The notes under the pieces are model-generated. The model was not told the origin of the DNA and searched no databases. It saw only the letters and a list, made by a program, of their open reading frames with translations. A program made the translations under genes and the position numbers. Shown here piece by piece: positions 17,069 to 31,690 of a stretch of DNA of 32,000 bases; the stretch's first letter is position 1; every line of letters starts with the position of its first letter. Where the stretch lies: the NCBI RefSeq assembly GCF_000007985.2, contig NC_002939.5:210001-242000 (forward strand). Direction: 5' to 3'. This DNA is from Geobacter sulfurreducens PCA. GTDB taxonomy: Bacteria > Desulfobacterota > Desulfuromonadia > Geobacterales > Geobacteraceae.

Positions 17069-17920
17069 ATGACGGAGGGAAGGGTGCTGCGATATCTCGT
17101 TATCCTCTGCCTGGCCCTGGTGCTGCCCCTGCACGGTGGCGCGGCCACCGACGGATCCACGCCGGTTGAAGAGCACCATCACCATGCTGCGCCGGCTGCG
17201 GCGGAGGCAGCCGGCGTGGGAGTCGACGAGCGGTTGGGGGAGAAGATTCCCCTCGACCTGACGTTCAACGACGAAGCCGGCCGGCCGGTTCGCTTGGCGG
17301 ATCTGGTTACGGGACCGACGATTATCCTTCCCGTTTACTACCGCTGCACCAATGTCTGCAATTTCCTCCAGAACGGCATGGCAGCGGTGATCCCCGAGAT
17401 ACGGCGGAAACCGGGGGAGGAGTACCGGGTGATTTCCGTCAGCTTCGACGAGACGGAGCCGCCCGATCTGGCTGCCCGTTACCGGCGGATCTATCAGGGT
17501 GCCATCACCACGCCGTTCCCTGGGGACGGCTGGCGGTTCCTGACCGGTGACGCGGCGAATATCCGGCAACTGACCGACGCGATCGGATATCGCTTCCAGC
17601 GGAAGGGGCGCGACTTCGTGCATCCGGTGGCAAGCGTGGTGATCGCCGGGGACGGCACCATCATCCGCTATCTCTACGGGACCGCCTTCCTGCCCAAGGA
17701 TGTGACCCTGGCCTTGCTGGAGGCGCGGGAGGGGAAAGTCGGCAAGACCATCCGGACGGTGGTGGGATACTGCTTTTCCTTTGATCCGAAGCAGAAAACC
17801 TATGTCTTCAACCTGCTGCGCGTGAGCGCCACGGTAGTCATCCTGACAGCCGGGGCATTTCTCGCCTTTCTGCTGACAACGGGCAGAACGGGCTCACGGC
17901 AGCGCAAGGGAGGATCATGA
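17069..17920 (+). CDS. SCO1/SenC family copper chaperone (thioredoxin fold) with C-terminal TM helix
   Basis: Signal/anchor LVILCLALVLPLHG, His run EEHHHH, CxxxC motif YYRCTNVCNF, conserved downstream His (DFVHPV). The start could also be the GTG at 17084 (GGAGGG 5 nt upstream). Confidence 0.85.
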   Translation: MTEGRVLRYLVILCLALVLPLHGGAATDGSTPVEEHHHHAAPAAAEAAGVGVDERLGEKIPLDLTFNDEAGRPVRLADLVTGPTIILPVYYRCTNVCNFLQNGMAAVIPEIRRKPGEEYRVISVSFDETEPPDLAARYRRIYQGAITTPFPGDGWRFLTGDAANIRQLTDAIGYRFQRKGRDFVHPVASVVIAGDGTIIRYLYGTAFLPKDVTLALLEAREGKVGKTIRTVVGYCFSFDPKQKTYVFNLLRVSATVVILTAGAFLAFLLTTGRTGSRQRKGGS

Positions 17921-19542
17921 ACCGGTCTGAACGGACAGGCTCCGCTGCCGGCTTCTGGAGCGATACGGAAAAGGGCGGTATCGGCGCCTGGCTTCTCTCC
18001 ACCGACCACAAACGGATCGGGCTGCTCTACTTCTGGTCGGTATTCGGCTTTTTCCTGGTGGGGGTCGTGTTGGGGCTCATCCTCCGGCTGGAGCTGATGG
18101 CGCCGGGGCGCACCATCATGGGGCCCGATGCCTACAATGCCTTTTTCACCGTACACGGCGTGGTGATGATCTTTCTCTTCATCATCCCCGGCATTCCCGG
18201 CGCCTTCGGCAACATGCTGATGCCGATCCAGATCGGGGCCCGGGACGTGGCCTTTCCCCGGTTGAATCTCCTCTCCTGGTGGCTCTATGCCACCGGCGCC
18301 GGCGTGATCCTCCTCTCCCTCGTCACAGGCGGCGGCCCGCCGGACACCGGCTGGACCTTCTACCTCCCCTTCAGCGGCCGCACGGCCACCAACGTTTCCC
18401 TTGCGGTTTTCGGGGTCTTCATTGTCGGATTCTCTTCCATCCTGACCGGGATCAATTTCGTAACCACCATCCACCGGCTCCGGGCCGAGGGGATGATCTG
18501 GGGGCGGCTTCCCCTCTTTGTCTGGTCCCTCTACGCCACGGCCTGGGTCCAGATCCTGGCCACGCCGATCCTCGGCATCACCCTGGTACTGATCATTGCC
18601 GAGCGGATCCTGGGGGTCGGCCTCTTCGATCCGAGCCGGGGGGGGGATCCCCTCATGTACCAGCATCTCTTCTGGATTTACTCCCACCCGGCGGTTTACA
18701 TCATGGTCCTGCCTGCCATGGGAGTGGTGTCGGAGATCATCCCGGTCTTTGCCCGAAAGCCCATCTTCGGCTACAAGATGATTGCCTTCTCCAGTCTTGC
18801 CATCGCAGCGGCCGGGTCGCTCGTCTGGGGACACCACATGTTCACCAGCGGCATGAGCGATACGGCGGTGCTGGTCTTCTCCTTCCTCTCCTTCATCGTG
18901 GCCATACCCTCGGCCATCAAGGTCTTCAACTGGATCTCCACCCTTTATCGGGGCTCCATCTCCCTGGATCCGCCCATGCTCTTCGCCCTCTCCTTCATCC
19001 TTCTCTTCTCCATCGGCGGGTTGACCGGCCTGATTCTCGGTGCGGCCGCCACCGACGTCCATGTGCACGACACCCACTTCGTGGTGGGGCACTTCCACTA
19101 CGTCATGTTCGGCGGCGCCGGCTTCGCCTTCTTCGCGGCCATGCACTACTGGCTGCCCAAGTTCTACGGGCGGATGTACGCCCGCCGGCCGGCGGTCATC
19201 GCCTGGGGGCTCATGTTCGTGGGGTTCAACATTCTCTATTTCACCATGAAGGTCCTCGGGATGAAGGGGATGCCGCGGCGCTACTACGATTACCTTCCCG
19301 AGTTCGCGACGCTCAACCTGGTGTCTACCATCGGCAGCTGGATCCTGGCTCTGGGGCTCGCTGTGATGCTGGTGAACCTGTTCCGGGGGCTGTGGAAGGG
19401 GGAGCCCGTGACCGAGGCGAATCCCTGGGGAGGCGCGACCCTGGAATGGACCATCCCGACCCCGCCCCCCACGGAGAACTTTGCCGAGGAGCCGGTGGTG
19501 ACCCACGGACCCTATGACTTCCGGGGAGCGGGGATACCATGA
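17917..19542 (+). CDS. coxA: cytochrome c oxidase subunit I
   Basis: 541 aa. Heme-copper oxidase motifs (WFFGHPEVY-like LFWIYSHPAVYIMVLP, HHMF, VVGHFHYV). Start overlaps the SCO stop (ATGA). Confidence 0.97.
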   Translation: MNRSERTGSAAGFWSDTEKGGIGAWLLSTDHKRIGLLYFWSVFGFFLVGVVLGLILRLELMAPGRTIMGPDAYNAFFTVHGVVMIFLFIIPGIPGAFGNMLMPIQIGARDVAFPRLNLLSWWLYATGAGVILLSLVTGGGPPDTGWTFYLPFSGRTATNVSLAVFGVFIVGFSSILTGINFVTTIHRLRAEGMIWGRLPLFVWSLYATAWVQILATPILGITLVLIIAERILGVGLFDPSRGGDPLMYQHLFWIYSHPAVYIMVLPAMGVVSEIIPVFARKPIFGYKMIAFSSLAIAAAGSLVWGHHMFTSGMSDTAVLVFSFLSFIVAIPSAIKVFNWISTLYRGSISLDPPMLFALSFILLFSIGGLTGLILGAAATDVHVHDTHFVVGHFHYVMFGGAGFAFFAAMHYWLPKFYGRMYARRPAVIAWGLMFVGFNILYFTMKVLGMKGMPRRYYDYLPEFATLNLVSTIGSWILALGLAVMLVNLFRGLWKGEPVTEANPWGGATLEWTIPTPPPTENFAEEPVVTHGPYDFRGAGIP

Positions 19543-24572: not shown

Positions 24573-25490
24573 ATGAGGGCGGTCGAGCTCTTCTGCGGCA
24601 TCGGCGGTTTCGCCGCCGCGGTGGAGGGGACGGGCGTCCGCGTGGTGGCGGCTATGGACCAGGACGAGGCGGCCCTTGCCACTTACCGGCTCAACTTCCC
24701 CGGCCACGGCGCGCGGAAGGTGGATCTGGAGCGGGTGAGCGCCTGGGAGCTGACCGCAGGAGGGGTAGACCTCTGGTGGCTGTCGCCTCCGTGCCAGCCT
24801 TACTGCGAACGGGGCGTCCGCCGGGATCTGGCTGATCCCCGGGCCCGGAGCCTCGTGCATATCCTCAATCTGGCCGCCAGGATGTCCGATGAGGCTCTGC
24901 CGCGCCATCTGGCCCTGGAGAACGTGGCCGGCTTTGTCGGCTCCGAAGCCCACGGCCGGCTCACGGAGGTGCTGTCGTCGCGGGGGTACCGGCTGCAGGA
25001 GCGGCTGCTCTGCCCCACGGAGCTGGGCATTCCCTCCCGTCGCCCCCGCTACTATCTGGCCGCCTCCCGGGAGTCCCTGGCACCGGCGGAGGTTCTCTCG
25101 CCACTGCCCCGGCAGCCTTTGGCCGAGTACCTTGATCTCCTGCCGGCAAACGGCCAGCCGGCCGAGCTCCTGCTCTCCCCCGCCATCGTGGAACGGTTCG
25201 GCGCGGGCTTCCGCATTCTCGACCCTGCCGATCCCGATGCCTACACCACCTGCTTCACTTCGGGCTACGGCAGGTCCCTCACGGCATCGGGGGCCTACCT
25301 GCGCTGCAGCGACGGTGTCAGGCGTTTTTCCCCCGAGGAGATCGCCCGCCTGCTGCACTTTCCACCGTCGTTCCGCTTTCCGGAAGAGGTGCCGCTGCGC
25401 AAGCGCTGGCAACTGGTGGGGAACAGTCTGTCCGTGGCCGCGGTGCGGGAGGTGCTTCGGGCGTTGCCGTTACCGGCTGAGGAGGGGTGA
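24573..25490 (+). CDS. Dnmt2-family C5-cytosine methyltransferase (probable tRNA m5C38 methyltransferase)
   Basis: 305 aa. Motif I ELFCGIGG, IV SPPCQPY, VI ENVAGF, VIII RRPRYYL, Dnmt2-specific CFT motif TCFTSGYG, IX RRFSPEEIARLLHFP, X LVGNSLSV. Very short target-recognition region. Confidence 0.85.
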   Translation: MRAVELFCGIGGFAAAVEGTGVRVVAAMDQDEAALATYRLNFPGHGARKVDLERVSAWELTAGGVDLWWLSPPCQPYCERGVRRDLADPRARSLVHILNLAARMSDEALPRHLALENVAGFVGSEAHGRLTEVLSSRGYRLQERLLCPTELGIPSRRPRYYLAASRESLAPAEVLSPLPRQPLAEYLDLLPANGQPAELLLSPAIVERFGAGFRILDPADPDAYTTCFTSGYGRSLTASGAYLRCSDGVRRFSPEEIARLLHFPPSFRFPEEVPLRKRWQLVGNSLSVAAVREVLRALPLPAEEG

Positions 25491-25553: not shown

Positions 25554-26057
25554 CTAGAGGATTTCCACCAGTTGGAACTCGTAGGTGAGGTCCTCTCCCG
25601 CCAGGGGATGGTTGGCGTCGAAGGTGACGCTTTCGTCGGTCACTTCAACCACGGTTACGCCGAAGTCCTCGTCGTTCTCGTTGGAGATGACCAGTTCCTG
25701 ACCCACTTCGGGGATCAGGTCGGGGGGGAGATCGGAACGCTCGACGGTGAAGACCTTTTCCTCGTCGTACTCGCCGAAGCCTTCCGCCGCCGGGATGACC
25801 ACGGTCTTCTTCTCACCCGGGGCCATGCCGATCAGCGCCTCCTCAATCTTCTCGAAAAACTCGCCCCCCCCGATGGTCAGGGTCATGGGGCCGCTCTCCT
25901 CGCAACCGCAGCCGCAGCTGCCGTCGCCGCAGTCATCGGATTCGCAGTCGTCCGTGTCGCATCCAGCCCCTTCGAGGGTGCTGTCGAAAACCGTTCCGTC
26001 TTCCAGGGTGCCGGTGAAATCGATCGTTACCCGGTCACCTTTTTGTGCTTGTGCCAT
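25554..26057 (-). CDS. slyD: FKBP-type peptidyl-prolyl isomerase, SlyD-like, with internal Cys/Asp-rich insertion
   Basis: 167 aa. FKBP core (GDRVTIDFTGTLEDGTVFDS ... IGGGEFFEKIEEALIGM) and an IF-domain-like segment. The 24-aa insert CDTDDCESDDCGDGSCGCGCEESG is encoded at 25890-25961. Confidence 0.88.
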   Translation of the reverse strand: MAQAQKGDRVTIDFTGTLEDGTVFDSTLEGAGCDTDDCESDDCGDGSCGCGCEESGPMTLTIGGGEFFEKIEEALIGMAPGEKKTVVIPAAEGFGEYDEEKVFTVERSDLPPDLIPEVGQELVISNENDEDFGVTVVEVTDESVTFDANHPLAGEDLTYEFQLVEIL

Positions 26058-26225: not shown

Positions 26226-27878
26226 ATGACCGATACCCTGATACCCCGCACCCCCTCAGCCTACGACTATCCCCTGCTCATCAAGAGCCTGCTCCGCAAT
26301 CCCGTGGTCGACAACCCCGACCAGGAAATCGTCTACCGGGGCGTGATCCGCCACACCTACCGCGATCTGCGCGAGCGGGTCCGGCGCCTGGCCAATGTTC
26401 TCACGGGCCTGGGGGTCAAGGCGGGCGATACCGTGGCGGTCATGGATTGGGACAGCCACCGCTACCTGGAGCTTTTCTTCGCGGTGCCCATGATCGGCGC
26501 AGTGCTCCATACCATCAACGTCCGCCTCTCCCCGGAGCAGATCCTCTATACCATCGACCATGCCGAGGACGATCTGCTGCTGGTGAACAGCGAATTCCTC
26601 CCCATTCTGGAGCAGATCCGGGGCAGGATCGACACGGTGCGGGGGTATGTGCTCCTCACCGACGAGGAAAAGATGCCCGAGAGCCACATCCCCTTTGTGG
26701 GTGAGTACGAGGCGCTCCTGGCCGCGGCCTCAGGCGAGTACGATTTTCCCGATTTCGATGAGAACACCCGGGCAACCACCTTCTACACCACCGGGACCAC
26801 CGGCCTCCCCAAGGGGGTCTACTTCAGCCACCGCCAACTGGTGCTCCACACCATGGGAGTTATGGCGTCCCTGGGGACGGTCTTCGCCCATGGCCGCCTC
26901 CACCAGGGGGATGTCTACATGCCGATCACCCCCATGTTCCATGTCCACGCCTGGGGCGTGCCCTATCTGGCCACCATGCTCGGCATCAAACAGGTCTATC
27001 CGGGGCGCTACTCGCCCGATCTGCTCCTGGACCTCATCGAAAAGGAACGGGTCACCTTTACCCACTGTGTCCCCACCATCCTTCATATGCTCCTCAAGCA
27101 TCCCCATGCCAAGCGGGTCGACCTGGCGGGATTGAAGATGATCATCGGCGGGGCCGCCATGTCCCGGGCCCTCTGCTGCGAGGCGCTGGAGCGCGGTATC
27201 GACGTTTTCACCGGCTACGGCATGTCCGAGACCTGCCCCATTCTGACCTTCTCACGTCTCACGCCTGAAATGCTGGCGGGAAGCCCGGCCGAGCAGGCCG
27301 AGGTCCGCTGCCTCACGGGGCTGTCGCTGCCGTTCGTGGACCTGCGGGTGGTGGATCCGGAAACCGGGGCAGAGCAGCCTCGGGACGGCCGGAGCGCCGG
27401 CGAGATCGTGGTGCGCGCCCCCTGGCTGACCCAGGGGTACCTGAAGGACCACCGTACCTCGGAAAAGCTCTGGGAGGGAGGCTTTCTCCATACCGGTGAC
27501 GTGGCGGTGCGGGACGAACGGGGATACGTACGGATTACCGACCGGACCAAAGACGTGATCAAGGTGGCGGGAGAATGGGTCTCTTCACTGGAGTTGGAGG
27601 ATATCCTGGCTCATCATCCCGCCGTGGCCGAAGTGGCGGTCATCGGCCAGCCCGACGAGAAATGGGGGGAGCGCCCCCTGGCCCTGGTGGTGCTGAAGCC
27701 CGAGGAGGCCGGCCGGGTGGGGGAAAAGGACCTGGCGCATTTTGTCCGGGAATACGCCGACAAGGGGATGGTCAGCAAGCAGGTGGTCCTGCTGAAAGTG
27801 CGGCTCGTGGATGCCATCGACAAGACGAGCGTGGGCAAGATCAGCAAAGTGACCCTGCGGGAGAAGTACCTGGCATAG
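26226..27878 (+). CDS. AMP-dependent acyl-CoA synthetase / fatty-acid--CoA ligase
   Basis: 550 aa. AMP-binding motif YTTGTTGLPKGV, TGYGMSE, GDV...DRTKDVIK. AAAGGAG RBS. Confidence 0.92.
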   Translation: MTDTLIPRTPSAYDYPLLIKSLLRNPVVDNPDQEIVYRGVIRHTYRDLRERVRRLANVLTGLGVKAGDTVAVMDWDSHRYLELFFAVPMIGAVLHTINVRLSPEQILYTIDHAEDDLLLVNSEFLPILEQIRGRIDTVRGYVLLTDEEKMPESHIPFVGEYEALLAAASGEYDFPDFDENTRATTFYTTGTTGLPKGVYFSHRQLVLHTMGVMASLGTVFAHGRLHQGDVYMPITPMFHVHAWGVPYLATMLGIKQVYPGRYSPDLLLDLIEKERVTFTHCVPTILHMLLKHPHAKRVDLAGLKMIIGGAAMSRALCCEALERGIDVFTGYGMSETCPILTFSRLTPEMLAGSPAEQAEVRCLTGLSLPFVDLRVVDPETGAEQPRDGRSAGEIVVRAPWLTQGYLKDHRTSEKLWEGGFLHTGDVAVRDERGYVRITDRTKDVIKVAGEWVSSLELEDILAHHPAVAEVAVIGQPDEKWGERPLALVVLKPEEAGRVGEKDLAHFVREYADKGMVSKQVVLLKVRLVDAIDKTSVGKISKVTLREKYLA

Positions 27879-27883
27879 GACGG

Positions 27884-28954
27884 CTACTCGGTGAAGGCCA
27901 GCTTCCGCTCAAGGTCCATGGAGCGGGTGATCTGCTTGGCCTGGTCGAAGGTAATGACGTCCTTCTCGCACAGTTCCAGCAGGTGCTGGTCAAGGGTCTG
28001 CATCTGGTAGAGGGAGCGGCCGTTTTCGATGTGCTTCTCGATCTCGTCCAGGCGTCCCTCGCGAATGCAGGCCTGGATGGTGGTTGTGGCTCGCATCACC
28101 TCCACCACCGGCAGGATGTTCTCCCCGGATTTGTCCTTGATGAGCCGTAACGACACGGTGGCCACCAGGATGTCGGCCAGGCGCTGGCGCAGGACCTCCT
28201 GGGCATCGGGGGGGAAGTGGCCGATGAGCCGGTTGATAGTGGATACGGCGCTCTGGGTGTGGAGGGTGGAAAAGACCAGGTGGCCCGTCTCCGCCGCCTT
28301 GATGCAGGCGTCGATGGTTTCCAGGTCGCGCATCTCGCCCACCATGATCACGTCGGGGTCCATCCGCAGGGACGAGCGGAGCGCCGCGCTGAAGTCGACC
28401 GTGTCGATTCCCACCTCCCGCTGGATGATGCAGCTCTTGTCCGAGGTGAAGAGGAACTCGATGGGGTCCTCGATGGTGATGATGTTGAAGGTGCAGGTCT
28501 CGTTCAGGTGGCGAATCATGGAGGCAAGGGTGGTCGACTTACCGTTGCCCGTGGGGCCGGTGACCAGCACGAGGCCGTTGGGGGCTTTGGCGATCTCTCC
28601 CAGGACCGGCGGCAGGTTGAGTTCCTCGAAGGTCCCCACGTGGGGAGGAATCACCCTCATGACGATGCCGATGCTCCCGCGCTGACGGAAGATGCTCACC
28701 CGGAAGCGCCCGCCATTGGGGAGCGAGTAGGAGGCGTCCAGCTCCCGCAGCTCGTCGGGGAGGGTCCGGTGGTTCTGCTCCATAACGGCCCGGGCGATGA
28801 ATTCGGTGTCCTGGGGGGAGAGCTTCGGCAACTTTGAGCGGAGCAACTGCCCCTTGGCACGGAAGAAGGGGGGATTGTCCACCTCGAAGTGGAGGTCGGA
28901 AACCCGCTTTTCAAAGGCAATGCCCAGAATCTGGGACAGAAGGTTCATATCCAT
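27884..28954 (-). CDS. pilT: type IV pilus retraction ATPase PilT family
   Basis: 356 aa. Walker A GPTGNGKST, Asp box, Walker B MVGEMRD, His box TLHT. PilT-like length, with no PilB N-terminal extension. Confidence 0.93.
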   Translation of the reverse strand: MDMNLLSQILGIAFEKRVSDLHFEVDNPPFFRAKGQLLRSKLPKLSPQDTEFIARAVMEQNHRTLPDELRELDASYSLPNGGRFRVSIFRQRGSIGIVMRVIPPHVGTFEELNLPPVLGEIAKAPNGLVLVTGPTGNGKSTTLASMIRHLNETCTFNIITIEDPIEFLFTSDKSCIIQREVGIDTVDFSAALRSSLRMDPDVIMVGEMRDLETIDACIKAAETGHLVFSTLHTQSAVSTINRLIGHFPPDAQEVLRQRLADILVATVSLRLIKDKSGENILPVVEVMRATTTIQACIREGRLDEIEKHIENGRSLYQMQTLDQHLLELCEKDVITFDQAKQITRSMDLERKLAFTE

Positions 28955-28999
28955 GGCGGTACCTCACTGCTATCTAAAAAATGCGGCCGGAAAGACCGT

Positions 29000-30775
29000 T
29001 CAGCGGTCACAGGCCGTCCCCTCGGGAGCCTTCCGCTCCCGTTTCCTGCGATAGAGCGCCGTTTCCAGAACCAACCCCGCCTCGCCCGTCACGAGCTCAA
29101 GCAGCTCGGTGCGCACGGGCGCTGCCCCCTTGTGGCCGAAATCCCCGTAGATGAGAGCGATGACCTTGCCGCCGCAGACCAGCGGGAGCAGGATGACCGT
29201 GGGGTGGAGCGGAGCGCCGATGATGGGAAAAAGATGCCCCTTCAGTATCTCATCGTCAGTTTCGCCATAAAATGCAGCTCTTTTTTCAATCGCGTCCCGG
29301 AGCACCGACGGGCGGTCCAGGGGGATCCTCGTCCCGAAAGAGGGTGAGACGCAGGCGCCACGGGGGCTCCGAATGCCGATACTCCGCTCGGCGATAAGTT
29401 CCTCTTCGCGCACGATGAGAGTGAGTGCCCGCTCGAAGGTGCCTGCCACCGTACTCAGGAGGGTCAGGGCGATTTCCGGAGGCTCGCGAAGTGCCCGCAA
29501 CTCCATTAACGTTTTGCCGAGTTGGGCCATGGCCGCTTCGCCGCCGTCTGAGCCCCGCCGCCTCAGATAGAGGGGCAGGGCGTCCAGAAGCCGGAGGGTG
29601 TCCTCCAGGAAGGTGTCGCCGCTCACCTCGCGCACGGGGCGGGGGAAGACGGCCACGGCTCCGTCTTTCAGGGCCTGGAGGGCAAAGGCCGGCTCAAGGG
29701 GCGAAGCGAGCTGGATGAGGGCGAGGGAGGGGTGGTGCTCCCTGACTCGTCGCAGGAGCCGCGCCGCATCTTCTGCGGGCAGGGTAAAGCCGGGCGATGC
29801 CGGCGAGTCAAGGATCAGGGTCGTCTGCCCGCCACGGGAGGCGAACTGTTGCGCCAGAGGGGCCAGGTCCTGCTCGTCGTTGGTGGTGAAAACGGAAATC
29901 CCCGCCTGACGGCAGACGGTGGTTACGCAGTAGGAAAAAAGGTCGTCCGGGCTGAAGAGGATGGCGGAAAGAGTGGGCGCACCGGCGGCTGGTGCGGTGT
30001 TCCCGAGCCGGCCCAGAAAGGCGAAGAGCTCCTCCTGTTCTTTGTCGGAAAGGTCTGCGCCCAGCTCTTGAATCTTACGCTGAAGGGAGGGGCTGCGATC
30101 CTCCAGCCCCAGAAAGACCTGGGGAATTTTCCGTTCGATCTGATCCAGGTCCCCGAGTCCCAGATCGTCGGCCGAGATGTTGAAATCGGCGGCTTCATCG
30201 CCGGAGAGGTCCGGGATAGGGGCCTCGATCGCAAACTCCTCCTCCACCAGCAGACCATCGCGCTTTTTCTCGTCGTAGATGCGGAGGGCGTCCATGAGGA
30301 CATTTTCCGTGTGGAGCGTGATTTCCTCATGGAGCTTTTCCGGGAAATAGCGGTACTCGTCGGAGACGCTGACCCGGTTCACGTCCAGATCAAAGGTGCC
30401 CCGCCTCCAGGTGAGAATTTCCACCACCGTCAGCTCGATGAGGGCCTCAAGCCCCCGGTAGGCGTCCTCCTTGCGGACGCTGCCCCGTTCGAGAAGTGTT
30501 GCCACCAGGGGTTTCCGTCCCGCTCCCGCCTCCTCCTGCTCCTGCAGGGCCTGCTCCAGGACCTCCTTGCTGATGACGCCGGCCTCTACGAGGATGTTGC
30601 CGATCCGGACGCTGTTGTCGAAGTGATTGGCGCTGATGATGTAGCCGTCGTTGAAGACGAGCTGGGACTCTCCCTTGCGTCCCCGCACGGTGAGGGTGCC
30701 TGACTTGCGGGTGGCGTGCAGCAGTTGGATGACGTCGACGATCGACAGGTGTTCCAGGTCACCGGTGAAAGACAT
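29000..30775 (-). CDS. PATAN (DUF4388) domain protein with degenerate receiver-like middle domain and C-terminal GAF-like domain
   Basis: The internal ATG at 30775 follows AAGGAGA. N-terminus FTGDLEHLSIVDVIQLLHATRKSGTLTV is the DUF4388/PATAN signature. The middle region ILFSPDD ... TTLILDSP ... LIQLAS ... FPRP resembles CheY-like REC with Lys replaced by Arg. The C-terminal about 150 aa is GAF-like. Lies 45 nt upstream of pilT. Confidence 0.8.
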   Translation of the reverse strand: MSFTGDLEHLSIVDVIQLLHATRKSGTLTVRGRKGESQLVFNDGYIISANHFDNSVRIGNILVEAGVISKEVLEQALQEQEEAGAGRKPLVATLLERGSVRKEDAYRGLEALIELTVVEILTWRRGTFDLDVNRVSVSDEYRYFPEKLHEEITLHTENVLMDALRIYDEKKRDGLLVEEEFAIEAPIPDLSGDEAADFNISADDLGLGDLDQIERKIPQVFLGLEDRSPSLQRKIQELGADLSDKEQEELFAFLGRLGNTAPAAGAPTLSAILFSPDDLFSYCVTTVCRQAGISVFTTNDEQDLAPLAQQFASRGGQTTLILDSPASPGFTLPAEDAARLLRRVREHHPSLALIQLASPLEPAFALQALKDGAVAVFPRPVREVSGDTFLEDTLRLLDALPLYLRRRGSDGGEAAMAQLGKTLMELRALREPPEIALTLLSTVAGTFERALTLIVREEELIAERSIGIRSPRGACVSPSFGTRIPLDRPSVLRDAIEKRAAFYGETDDEILKGHLFPIIGAPLHPTVILLPLVCGGKVIALIYGDFGHKGAAPVRTELLELVTGEAGLVLETALYRRKRERKAPEGTACDR

Positions 30776-30865
30776 GAGGCGGTTCTCCTTGCAGGGGGCG
30801 TCAGGATGCGCCCGGTCCAGCCCTGGACCGTCAGGGGGGCGACTTTCCCCGCTGGACCCAGGTTC

Positions 30866-30894
30866 AATTAAACTCGATAACGAGCGCCCCTTCA
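30866..30894 (-). promoter_or_regulatory. candidate sigma70-type promoter of the PATAN-pilT operon
   Basis: On the minus strand: TTGAAG (30894-30889), 17-nt spacer, TTTAAT (30871-30866). Confidence 0.45.
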
Positions 30895-31030
30895 AGTACA
30901 CCTATCGGAAAGAAACGGAATTGCTTGAGGAAACCTTTCCGCAGTCCGTCCGCTGAAGCTGAAAAGCGCATGCGTTCGGCGCCGAATCCGGGTATACTGC
31001 GAGGCCAACCCCAACGACAAAGGAGACCCT

Positions 31031-31690
31031 ATGGAGATACTTCTGAACGACGTGGAGGTGCGGGTTCTCGGCTGCCTGATCGAAAAGGAGCTGGCGACCC
31101 CCGAGTACTATCCCCTCACCCTCAACAGCCTCACCACGGCCTGCAACCAGAAGTCGAACCGGGATCCGGTCATGGCCCTGGAGGAGTCCGAGGTGGTGCG
31201 GGCTCTGGACGGCCTGAAGATGAAGCATGTGGCGATCCAGGCGGCCGATTCGGGGCGGGTTCCCCGCTATCGCCATATCCTGTCGGAGCGGCTGCGGTTC
31301 TCCCCGGCCGAACTGGCGATCCTGGCAGAGTTGCTCCTGCGGGGGCCCCAGACCCTGGGGGAGCTGCGTACCCGCGCGGAGCGGATGCATCCCTTTGCCG
31401 ATCTGGCTGCCGTGGAGCAGGTGCTGGGCGAACTGGCGGAGCGCACCCCGCCTCTCGTGATGCGGCTTCCCCGTCAGCCCGGCCGCAAGGAATCCCGTTT
31501 CGCCCATCTGCTGGCCGGAGAGCCGGACCTGTCGGCCGAGGAGCGGACGGCCCCGCCGGAGGGGGCACGGCTTCAGGTCATGGCGGAGAATGAGCGGATT
31601 GCCGCGCTGGAGTTGGAGGTGGCGACGCTCAGGGCGGAAGTGGGCGAGTTGCGACAGGTGATGGAAGAGTTCAGGTCCCAGTTCGAGTGA
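31031..31690 (+). CDS. yceH: YceH family protein (DUF480/UPF0502)
   Basis: 219 aa. N-terminus LNDVEVRVLGCLIEKELATPEYYPLTLNSLTTACNQKSNR is highly characteristic of YceH. C-terminal coiled coil. AAAGGAG RBS. Confidence 0.9.
   Translation: MEILLNDVEVRVLGCLIEKELATPEYYPLTLNSLTTACNQKSNRDPVMALEESEVVRALDGLKMKHVAIQAADSGRVPRYRHILSERLRFSPAELAILAELLLRGPQTLGELRTRAERMHPFADLAAVEQVLGELAERTPPLVMRLPRQPGRKESRFAHLLAGEPDLSAEERTAPPEGARLQVMAENERIAALELEVATLRAEVGELRQVMEEFRSQFE

Follow-up and report, generated by a model that had tools for sequence, protein, structure and literature searches.

What might a protein described only as "hypothetical" be doing directly upstream of a gene for a PilT-type motor? The question is raised by a 32,000-nucleotide (nt) stretch of the Geobacter sulfurreducens PCA genome (NC_002939.5, positions 210,001 to 242,000; hereafter the window, whose own numbering is used throughout), in which the gene GSU0231 precedes pilT2 (GSU0230). 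Here we report that the two genes form a near-obligate pair across Geobacter and its relatives, and we conclude from sequence comparison that their products very probably work as a pair. The two genes lie as follows.

29000..30775, minus strand: GSU0231, coding sequence of a 591-amino-acid (aa) PATAN / REC-like / GAF protein, assigned from the open reading frame (ORF), start codon, exact primer matches and domain searches
27884..28954, minus strand: pilT2 (GSU0230), coding for a 356-aa hexameric ATPase of the PilT/PilU family, assigned from TIGR01420, catalytic motifs and exact primer matches

Four reverse-transcription PCR (RT-PCR) primers of Speers et al. 2016 (PMC5065972) match the window exactly, which identifies the genes as GSU0231 and pilT2/GSU0230, and the pilT2 deletion primers from the table of that paper can also be read by eye in the sequence. 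The intergenic gap is exactly 45 nt. GSU0231 starts at an ATG with AAGGAG just upstream; a longer GTG start at 30901 was rejected because every homologue, all orthologues included, begins MSFTGDLE. The same authors describe GSU0231 only as "hypothetical" (Speers et al. 2016), and among the papers searched theirs is the only one to mention it, in keeping with an earlier reading of this DNA from its letters alone (the original prediction), which knew of no characterised example of the architecture.

That reading had also tied GSU0231 to one specific PilT paralogue, and the neighbourhoods of its relatives make the link stronger than was then claimed. On the sensor side we took one genome per species and examined the best 80 of 243 relatives. 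In 75 of 80 loci the next gene downstream, in the same orientation, encodes a PilT2 orthologue (73-93% identity); of the five exceptions, three are cut off by the end of a contig, which leaves 75 of 77 informative loci paired. From the PilT2 side, among 80 metagenome loci (PilT2 75-94% identity), the sensor was found in all 72 with room for it upstream. All 73 pairs for which ORFs were called are encoded on the same strand, with a median gap of about 36 nt; taking the gap counts together, the median is near 36-40 nt and the smallest gaps are 3-15 nt. Clustering of the flanking ORFs of the 80 loci revealed no further broadly conserved neighbour, and a wider conserved gene cluster was ruled out, since only GSU0231 and pilT2 are common to these loci.

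The two partners differ in how fast they change. PilT2 is 66-94% identical across loci compared with 26-63% for the sensor, and even distant sensors (26-36% identity) still precede PilT2 proteins that are 66-74% identical. By this measure GSU0231 appears to be the fast-evolving partner of PilT2, and a slow motor next to a diverging partner is what would be expected of a conserved engine with an adaptable sensor.

Speers et al. (PMC5065972) called pilT2 an orphan of poor conservation, whose arrangement was peculiar to G. sulfurreducens. The conserved pairing, as judged from the loci compared here, contradicts this description. The remark may partly have concerned the gene that faces pilT2 in the window.

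26226-27878, convergent to pilT2: alkK (GSU0229), position taken from the window

Directly 3' of pilT2, 22 of the 80 genome loci carry a gene for a sigma-54-dependent NtrC-type response regulator (for example L032:8897-10282). This regulator is absent from the window, where alkK converges instead.

What kind of sensor precedes PilT2 was approached through domain searches and structure prediction, using a full-length AlphaFold model of GSU0231 (50 homologues, mean predicted local distance difference test score, pLDDT, of 78) and a PATAN domain-only model (alignment of the window fragment with full-length database proteins, pLDDT 91). Residue counts for the GSU0231 family are taken from a 191-sequence alignment. 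In the full-length model a PATAN core split by four helices (aa 55-121) is followed by a disordered acidic linker (aa 174-228), a (beta-alpha)5 domain (aa 263-381), long connector helices (aa 382-446) and an alpha/beta domain (aa 447-582). The parts of the protein that concern us are these.

30257..30775, minus strand: PATAN (DUF4388) domain, aa 1-173, with its core in aa 1-54 and 122-173 (PF14332; domain-only model)
30413..30613, minus strand: alpha-clip insert, aa 55-121, MshEN-like four-helix bundle (NF053729, profile matches, superposition on 5htl)
30113..30178, minus strand: conserved linear motif in the disordered linker, aa 200-221, (I/L)(S/T)ADDLGLxDLDxLE(R/K)KIPxVF, a candidate PilT2-docking peptide
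29633..29989, minus strand: REC-like (pseudo-receiver) domain, aa 263-381 (beta-alpha order in the model, Foldseek, column counts, hhalign register)
29030..29437, minus strand: GAF domain, aa 447-582, reached via connector helices aa 382-446 (Foldseek; GAF_2 in orthologues)

The original prediction had read the protein as an N-terminal PATAN/DUF4388 domain, a CheY-like segment and a C-terminal GAF-like domain, and all three calls were upheld; taken as a whole, its observation was confirmed in part and its interpretation supported in part. PF14332 matches aa 4-171 at 103.3 bits against a cutoff of 25, and the match covers the full profile (positions 1-122 of 122), so that the insert lies inside the PATAN domain. 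The same family is matched by 50 of 50 orthologues, and PATAN is the most conserved part of GSU0231 (conservation 0.84 for aa 1-54 and 0.74 for aa 122-173). A structural search with the pLDDT-91 model returned no significant structural match to the PATAN core in the PDB. Sugar-kinase and actin-fold relatives of the core, with probabilities of 0.2 or less, were not trusted. A solved PATAN structure is apparently missing from the PDB.

The CheY-like segment contains both LILDSP and FPRP, so that the remark in the original prediction that the Asp is kept and the Lys replaced is borne out, and its receiver fold is supported by a Foldseek match to 2qxy with a target-normalised template-modelling score (TMt) of 0.75. 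D277/D278, D323, A357/S358 and R379-P380 of GSU0231 occupy the positions of CheY D12/D13, D57, T87 and K109-P110; the hhalign register behind this assignment is weak (probability 0.5%) yet consistent with the strand ends in the model, where D323 stands directly after strand 317-322, at the end of strand 3. D323 is conserved in 189/191 sequences and D277 in 171/191. The CheY T87 position is held by Ala357 (family counts A106, V46, T18 and S13, n=191), and the CheY K109 position by Arg379 (Arg in 154 and Lys in 19 of 191), next to the conserved Pro380. Pfam Response_reg matches neither GSU0231 nor any of the 50 orthologues, and matches of NtrC receivers to GSU0231 are weak (E 0.016 in NCBIfam, E 0.0085 in a PDB profile search).

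At the C-terminus, Foldseek matches the fold to DevS GAF-B, the Lcd1 cAMP-GAF and PDE10A GAF-B (E 6e-6 to 4e-5, TMt 0.63-0.71), and Pfam GAF_2 matches 20 of 50 orthologues (best E 5.6e-6). GSU0231 itself has no Pfam REC or GAF match, GAF_2 falling below threshold. The REC and GAF assignments are accordingly predictions from modelled fold, joined for GAF by the hidden Markov model matches of orthologues. Conserved residues of the GAF region are mostly Gly, Pro and hydrophobic, together with a YGDFG motif. For the C-terminal half taken together, the best match in the PDB was the REC-GAF module of a dual-sensor kinase (6oap, E 3e-9).

Two further elements of the protein were overlooked by the original prediction. 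One is the helical insert of PATAN, which the models indicate to be an MshEN-type four-helix bundle. This alpha-clip, of ~65 residues between PF14332 profile positions, forms four helices in both models, and aa 57-110 score 36.2 bits against NF053729, the NCBIfam MshE-related cyclic di-GMP (c-di-GMP) motif, whose cutoff is 38. A profile of the family matches the N-termini of Geobacter PilB (E 2e-5), Thermus PilF and Vibrio MshE, and the insert superposes on c-di-GMP-bound MshE (5htl) with a root-mean-square deviation (rmsd) of 1.5 A over 55-57 residues at 34-35% identity (probability 0.99-1.0). MshEN motif 1 is intact: RIGNILVEAGVISKEVLEQALQEQ (aa 57-80) fits the 24-residue pattern RLGxxLLxxGLLxxxxLxxxLxxQ, with R57 I58 G59 ... 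L77 ... Q80 in register and both the Arg and the Gln exposed. R57 is kept in 186/191 sequences and G59, L62, L77 and Q80 in 191/191; position 10 of the motif is variable (Asn in 78 and Gly in 52). Motif 2, PLVATLLERGSVRKEDAYRGLEAL, is degenerate: it runs P89 L90 V/I91 ... L112, with the Gly at its third position replaced by Val or Ile and the Gln at position 24 by Leu, and the spacer between the motifs is 8 residues in GSU0231 compared with the canonical 5. Mutagenesis bears on these positions, as the G40I variant of MshE shows poor if any c-di-GMP binding, and small deviations abolish binding in PilF GSPII-A. We therefore do not file GSU0231 as a canonical c-di-GMP receptor: motif 2 is substituted as in MshE G40I, and fails where mutagenesis shows that it matters. 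The insert provides a naturally occurring case in which one half-site of an MshEN bundle is canonical and the other broken.

The other element is the linker peptide. L205, G206 and L207 are each present in 190/191 sequences within a stretch whose pLDDT is about 50 or lower. Among 12 distant full-length homologues, hand-picked from an exhaustive representative search, those with and those without the motif split exactly by PilT2 adjacency (12/12). Six carry it and are all followed by a PilT2-like gene (P0181, P0208, P0212, P0215, P0240 and P0243), and six of similar identity lack it and have no PilT2 next to them (P0142, P0193, P0211, P0213, P0225 and P0229). Locus L064 likewise has neither the motif nor PilT2. 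It is the linker peptide, rather than the nucleotide-type half-site, that goes with PilT2, because in distant PilT2-linked members of the family motif 1 no longer has its Arg, Gly and Gln. The peptide thus appears to be the best sequence correlate of the PilT2 link and is our best candidate for a docking element, a role suggested by correlation in a small, hand-picked sample.

Homologues that lack the peptide have neighbours of another kind. P0193, P0225 and P0229 (between them loci L081, L083 and L168) are preceded by genes for a small receiver and a stand-alone GAF protein, or for CheW and a GAF protein; CheW, CheR and methyl-accepting chemotaxis protein genes lie downstream of P0225 (L168), and a PilZ gene downstream of P0211 (L169). 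The motif-less members at loci L170 and L173 likewise do not adjoin PilT. Taken together, the motif-less members look like a separate, chemosensory-linked branch of the same architecture. L064 shares the metagenome-assembled genome (MAG) DATJLB01 with L008, one holding the motif-less paralogue, followed by a gene for a Kelch-repeat protein, and the other the PilT2-linked copy, so the family duplicates and diverges within a lineage.

The motor itself is a clear member of its family. The pilT2 product scores 418.3 bits against TIGR01420 (cutoff 319.1), its Walker A (GPTGNGKST), Walker B, Asp box and His box are present and conserved, and its best PDB matches are PilT proteins, not PilU. The motif AIRNLIRE marks retraction-competent PilT. 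At that position PilT2 has TIQACIRE (aa 292-299), a partial match only, which is kept among orthologues. From these motifs and its slow divergence, PilT2 is predicted to be catalytically competent and under strong purifying selection. It is 43-47% identical to the other three PilT paralogues of G. sulfurreducens. Among all the paralogues, PilT4 is the sole one whose inactivation in G. sulfurreducens gave hyperpiliation-type phenotypes (PMC5065972).

How, then, might the sensor act on the motor? The domain folds, the residue patterns, the near-obligate synteny seen from both sides and the correlation of the linker motif with PilT2 are the observations from which we start; contact between the two proteins, which way control runs, what the ligand is and on which machine the pair acts are what we infer from them. 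We think it probable, though far from certain, that under the control of a GAF ligand the PATAN domain and linker peptide of GSU0231 hold PilT2 at a pilus-type platform, position it there or gate it. GSU0231 and PilT2 would form a dedicated two-gene sensor-motor module, co-inherited across Geobacter and related Desulfuromonadia. On the output side, PATAN, with its four-helix insert resembling the N-terminus of PilB, and the linker at aa 200-221 would hold or regulate PilT2, or place it at a type IV pilus or related secretion platform, or both. On the input side, the C-terminal GAF domain, which probably binds a small ligand, would be coupled through the long helices to the degenerate receiver, more likely a structural or dimerisation relay than a normal phospho-switch. 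On this account GSU0231 would be a regulator like PatA, but with the normal chemistry of the receiver lost and a GAF input added. There is precedent in Synechocystis, where PATAN by itself binds PilB1 and the N-domain of PilC and can switch phototactic orientation, and the REC-GAF tandem has a solved counterpart in 6oap. The small-ligand-gated switch on retraction that had been proposed is hypothetical, and no GAF ligand can be inferred.

A bolder version has the linker peptide and PATAN docking onto the PilT2 hexamer. GSU0231 would then be the first PATAN regulator dedicated to a PilT-type motor, and PilT2 a ligand-gated auxiliary motor controlling the dynamics of a pilus or pilus-like secretion apparatus that Geobacter needs for extracellular electron transfer, with the half-intact MshEN insert perhaps providing a second nucleotide-dependent input in the Geobacter branch. 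We put this forward tentatively, as possible and on balance doubtful.

Several points weigh against the proposal that GSU0231 holds, places or gates PilT2. When assayed by yeast two-hybrid, the PatA-type regulators of Synechocystis interacted with PilB1 and PilC but with neither PilT1 nor PilT2. The 12 homologues behind the linker correlation were picked by hand, and one MAG locus (L065:6001-7791) keeps the linker motif with no PilT within 6 kb. This single exception may be a rearrangement or a problem of MAG assembly; in L063, a close relative of L065, PilT is set apart by an unusually wide gap of some 175-195 nt. In a P. aeruginosa delta-pilT mutant, PilT2 corrected neither hyperpiliation nor the twitching defect (Speers et al. 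2016, PMC5065972), so that of the earlier label "PilT retraction ATPase" the family assignment holds, by TIGR01420 and the motifs, while "retraction ATPase" is a family label and not a demonstrated function. Finally, co-transcription of the pair faces both an RT-PCR study reporting that GSU0231 and pilT2 are transcribed independently (Speers et al., PMC5065972) and a hairpin in the 45-nt gap. This hairpin, and a promoter candidate further upstream, lie as follows.

28976..29016, minus strand: interrupted hairpin across the GSU0231 stop codon, then T6 (terminator scan and fold)
30895-30867, minus strand: weak sigma-70-like candidate TTGAAG-17-TTTAAT, picked by eye only, unsupported by the scan and lacking the key A of the -10 hexamer

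To judge from its sequence, the hairpin with its T6 run could terminate or attenuate transcription. Its energy is no better than that of shuffled sequences (z 0.87) and a T-run occurs in only 18 of 75 orthologue gaps, and we rejected it as a conserved terminator, since orthologues do not conserve it and its energy is unremarkable. The GSU0231 stop codon sits in the inner loop of the hairpin, and a ribosome finishing GSU0231 would melt it; read-through into pilT2 could therefore, speculatively, depend on translation of GSU0231. As for the published RT-PCR, the legend gives the junction pair as primers 5 and 8 (Speers et al., PMC5065972). In the window primer 5 lies at 28682-28700 on the minus strand and primer 8 at 29251-29270 on the plus strand, so that the two extend away from each other and the negative junction result is uninformative as written. 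The convergent pair is primers 7 and 6, spanning 28615-29354 with a 740-bp product; it may also be that the legend is wrong. The published case against co-transcription calls for repetition. The sigma70-like promoter that had been placed upstream of the pair was not recovered, as a consensus scan of 27600-31200 found 0 sites on either strand, and with them no promoter-like site for pilT2; nor is there a sigma-54-type -24/-12 pattern in 30776-31030, upstream of GSU0231. Read-through from GSU0231, or from within it, would be the simplest reading for pilT2 expression, because the gap leaves no room for a pilT2 promoter and gaps in relatives go down to 3-15 nt. Of the operon that had been proposed, the common strand, short gap and conserved order stand, and the single transcript is contested by the hairpin with T6 and by the published RT-PCR; an operon is thus our inference from gene order, with co-transcription contested in G. 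sulfurreducens.

The extreme opposite of a working pair would be that GSU0231 and pilT2 are neighbours with no shared function, pilT2 being an independently transcribed orphan. This would suit the RT-PCR result and "orphan" description of Speers et al. (PMC5065972) and the terminator-like hairpin in the gap, and we give it very little credence: adjacency is near-obligate in both directions over about 150 loci, many relatives have gaps that could not accommodate a promoter, the scan gave pilT2 no promoter-like site, and the negative RT-PCR is uninformative as described, since junction primers 5 and 8 diverge. A more serious competitor turns to the other motor components, with the PATAN domain of GSU0231 binding and blocking PilB, PilC or both and co-expressed PilT2 taking the vacated platform without ever being touched by the sensor. 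Binding to the N-terminal region of PilB1 and to the N-domain of PilC, and not to PilT1 or PilT2, is the only PATAN activity shown by experiment; in Synechocystis, PATAN alone binds both and is enough by itself to switch the orientation of phototaxis. The same study noted that the insert resembles the start of extension ATPases, and its authors remarked that PATAN proteins elsewhere hint at a link with type IV pili. Since the closest likeness of the GSU0231 insert is to the N-terminus of Geobacter PilB, the two could compete for one docking site. We nevertheless consider blocking of PilB or PilC unlikely, as it leaves unexplained both the close link between linker peptide and PilT2 adjacency and why paralogues without PilT2 keep PATAN and its insert yet lose the linker peptide.

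The remaining alternatives accept GSU0231 as a regulator and move the switch to another domain. GSU0231 could be a genuine phospho-accepting response regulator of an unlinked histidine kinase, with phosphorylation of D323 as the main switch. The REC-like fold, with D323 in 189/191 and D277 in 171/191 sequences, would allow it, and some motif-less paralogues do lie in chemosensory clusters; a Thr/Ser position that is not conserved, the replacement of Lys by Arg in 81% of sequences, Response_reg matches in 0 of 50 orthologues and the lack of a conserved kinase gene nearby make it distinctly improbable. Or the MshEN-like insert, not GAF, might gate PilT2, making GSU0231 a cyclic-dinucleotide receptor (for c-di-GMP, 3'3'-cGAMP or the like, possibly across a dimer). 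Here the exact fit of motif 1, with G59, L62, L77 and Q80 in 191/191, the superposition on c-di-GMP-bound MshE at 1.5 A and the 36.2 bits for NF053729 are set against Ile/Val where MshE has Gly40 (G40I giving poor if any binding), Leu where it has Gln61, a spacer of 8 rather than 5 and an NF053729 score below the curated cutoff. Deviations of small size silence PilF GSPII-A, and distant PilT2-linked members do without the Arg, Gly and Gln of motif 1. A dinucleotide switch in the insert seems to us highly unlikely.

Comparison with known systems helps to place the proposed control of PilT2 by GSU0231. The cyanobacterial PatA-type regulators (PixG, PixE, LsiR and PilG; PATAN-REC) likewise have an N-terminal PATAN with a helical insert followed by a receiver fold, and are type IV pilus motor regulators in which PATAN is the output domain. 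In GSU0231, however, the receiver is degenerate (no Pfam match, Thr lost, Lys changed to Arg), a C-terminal GAF domain has been added, the linker peptide is present, and the genetic partner is a PilT-type ATPase rather than a chemosensory kinase, whereas the cyanobacterial proteins bound PilB1 and PilC, not PilT. With the MshEN/GSPII domains of MshE, PilB and PilF the insert shares the four-helix fold, the register and a fully canonical motif 1, but its motif 2 lacks the ligand-contacting Gly and Gln, its spacer is longer, and the bundle sits inside PATAN instead of heading an ATPase. In the FimX-PilZ-PilB system of Xanthomonas citri, too, a type IV pilus ATPase is the target of a signalling protein in the cytoplasm, as proposed for GSU0231, and the PilB N-domain in that complex (7lkm) matches the GSU0231 insert structurally; the system differs in using unrelated domains (EAL/GGDEF and PilZ), in targeting the extension motor and in having established c-di-GMP binding. 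The REC-GAF of the dual-sensor histidine kinase (6oap/6oaq) has a receiver followed by GAF, like the C-terminal half of GSU0231, in a bilin-binding, phosphorylatable kinase; GSU0231 has no kinase domain, and the orientation of the two domains differs (rmsd about 15 A).

In many bacteria PilT paralogues occur several to a genome, and few of them have a known function. Geobacter PilT2 belongs to the same ATPase family as other extra paralogues (P. aeruginosa PilU, Neisseria PilT2, Myxococcus PilT-like proteins, Geobacter PilT1/3/4), all catalytic motifs included; it differs from them as a slowly evolving orthologue group of its own, at 43-47% identity to the Geobacter paralogues, and in being paired with a PATAN sensor. 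Having been set aside as a non-conserved orphan, PilT2 now emerges as part of a strongly conserved module with its own sensor, and has a specific partner, a candidate docking peptide and point mutations to test. Pilus dynamics in Geobacter bear on metal reduction and on electroactive biofilms. We rate the pair as an uncharacterised, strongly conserved relative of the PATAN-type pilus-motor regulators, one that would extend the reach of PATAN from extension motors and platform proteins to a PilT-type ATPase.

Besides pilT2, the 32-kb window holds no other pilus genes. A divergent DUF480 gene upstream of GSU0231 (31031-31690, plus strand) is found at 11 loci, in the closest relatives only (L001-L015), and lies outside the conserved module. 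Further away, the gene for a short C5-cytosine methyltransferase (24573-25490, plus strand; PF00145, 305 aa), presumably akin to the Dnmt2-type tRNA methyltransferase reported in G. sulfurreducens, adjoins one for an FKBP-type isomerase with a Cys- and Asp-rich insert (25554-26057, minus strand). The window also carries a haem-copper oxidase subunit I gene (17917-19542, plus strand; PF00115, E 2e-151), unrelated to GSU0231 and pilT2, in an organism usually grown as an anaerobe.

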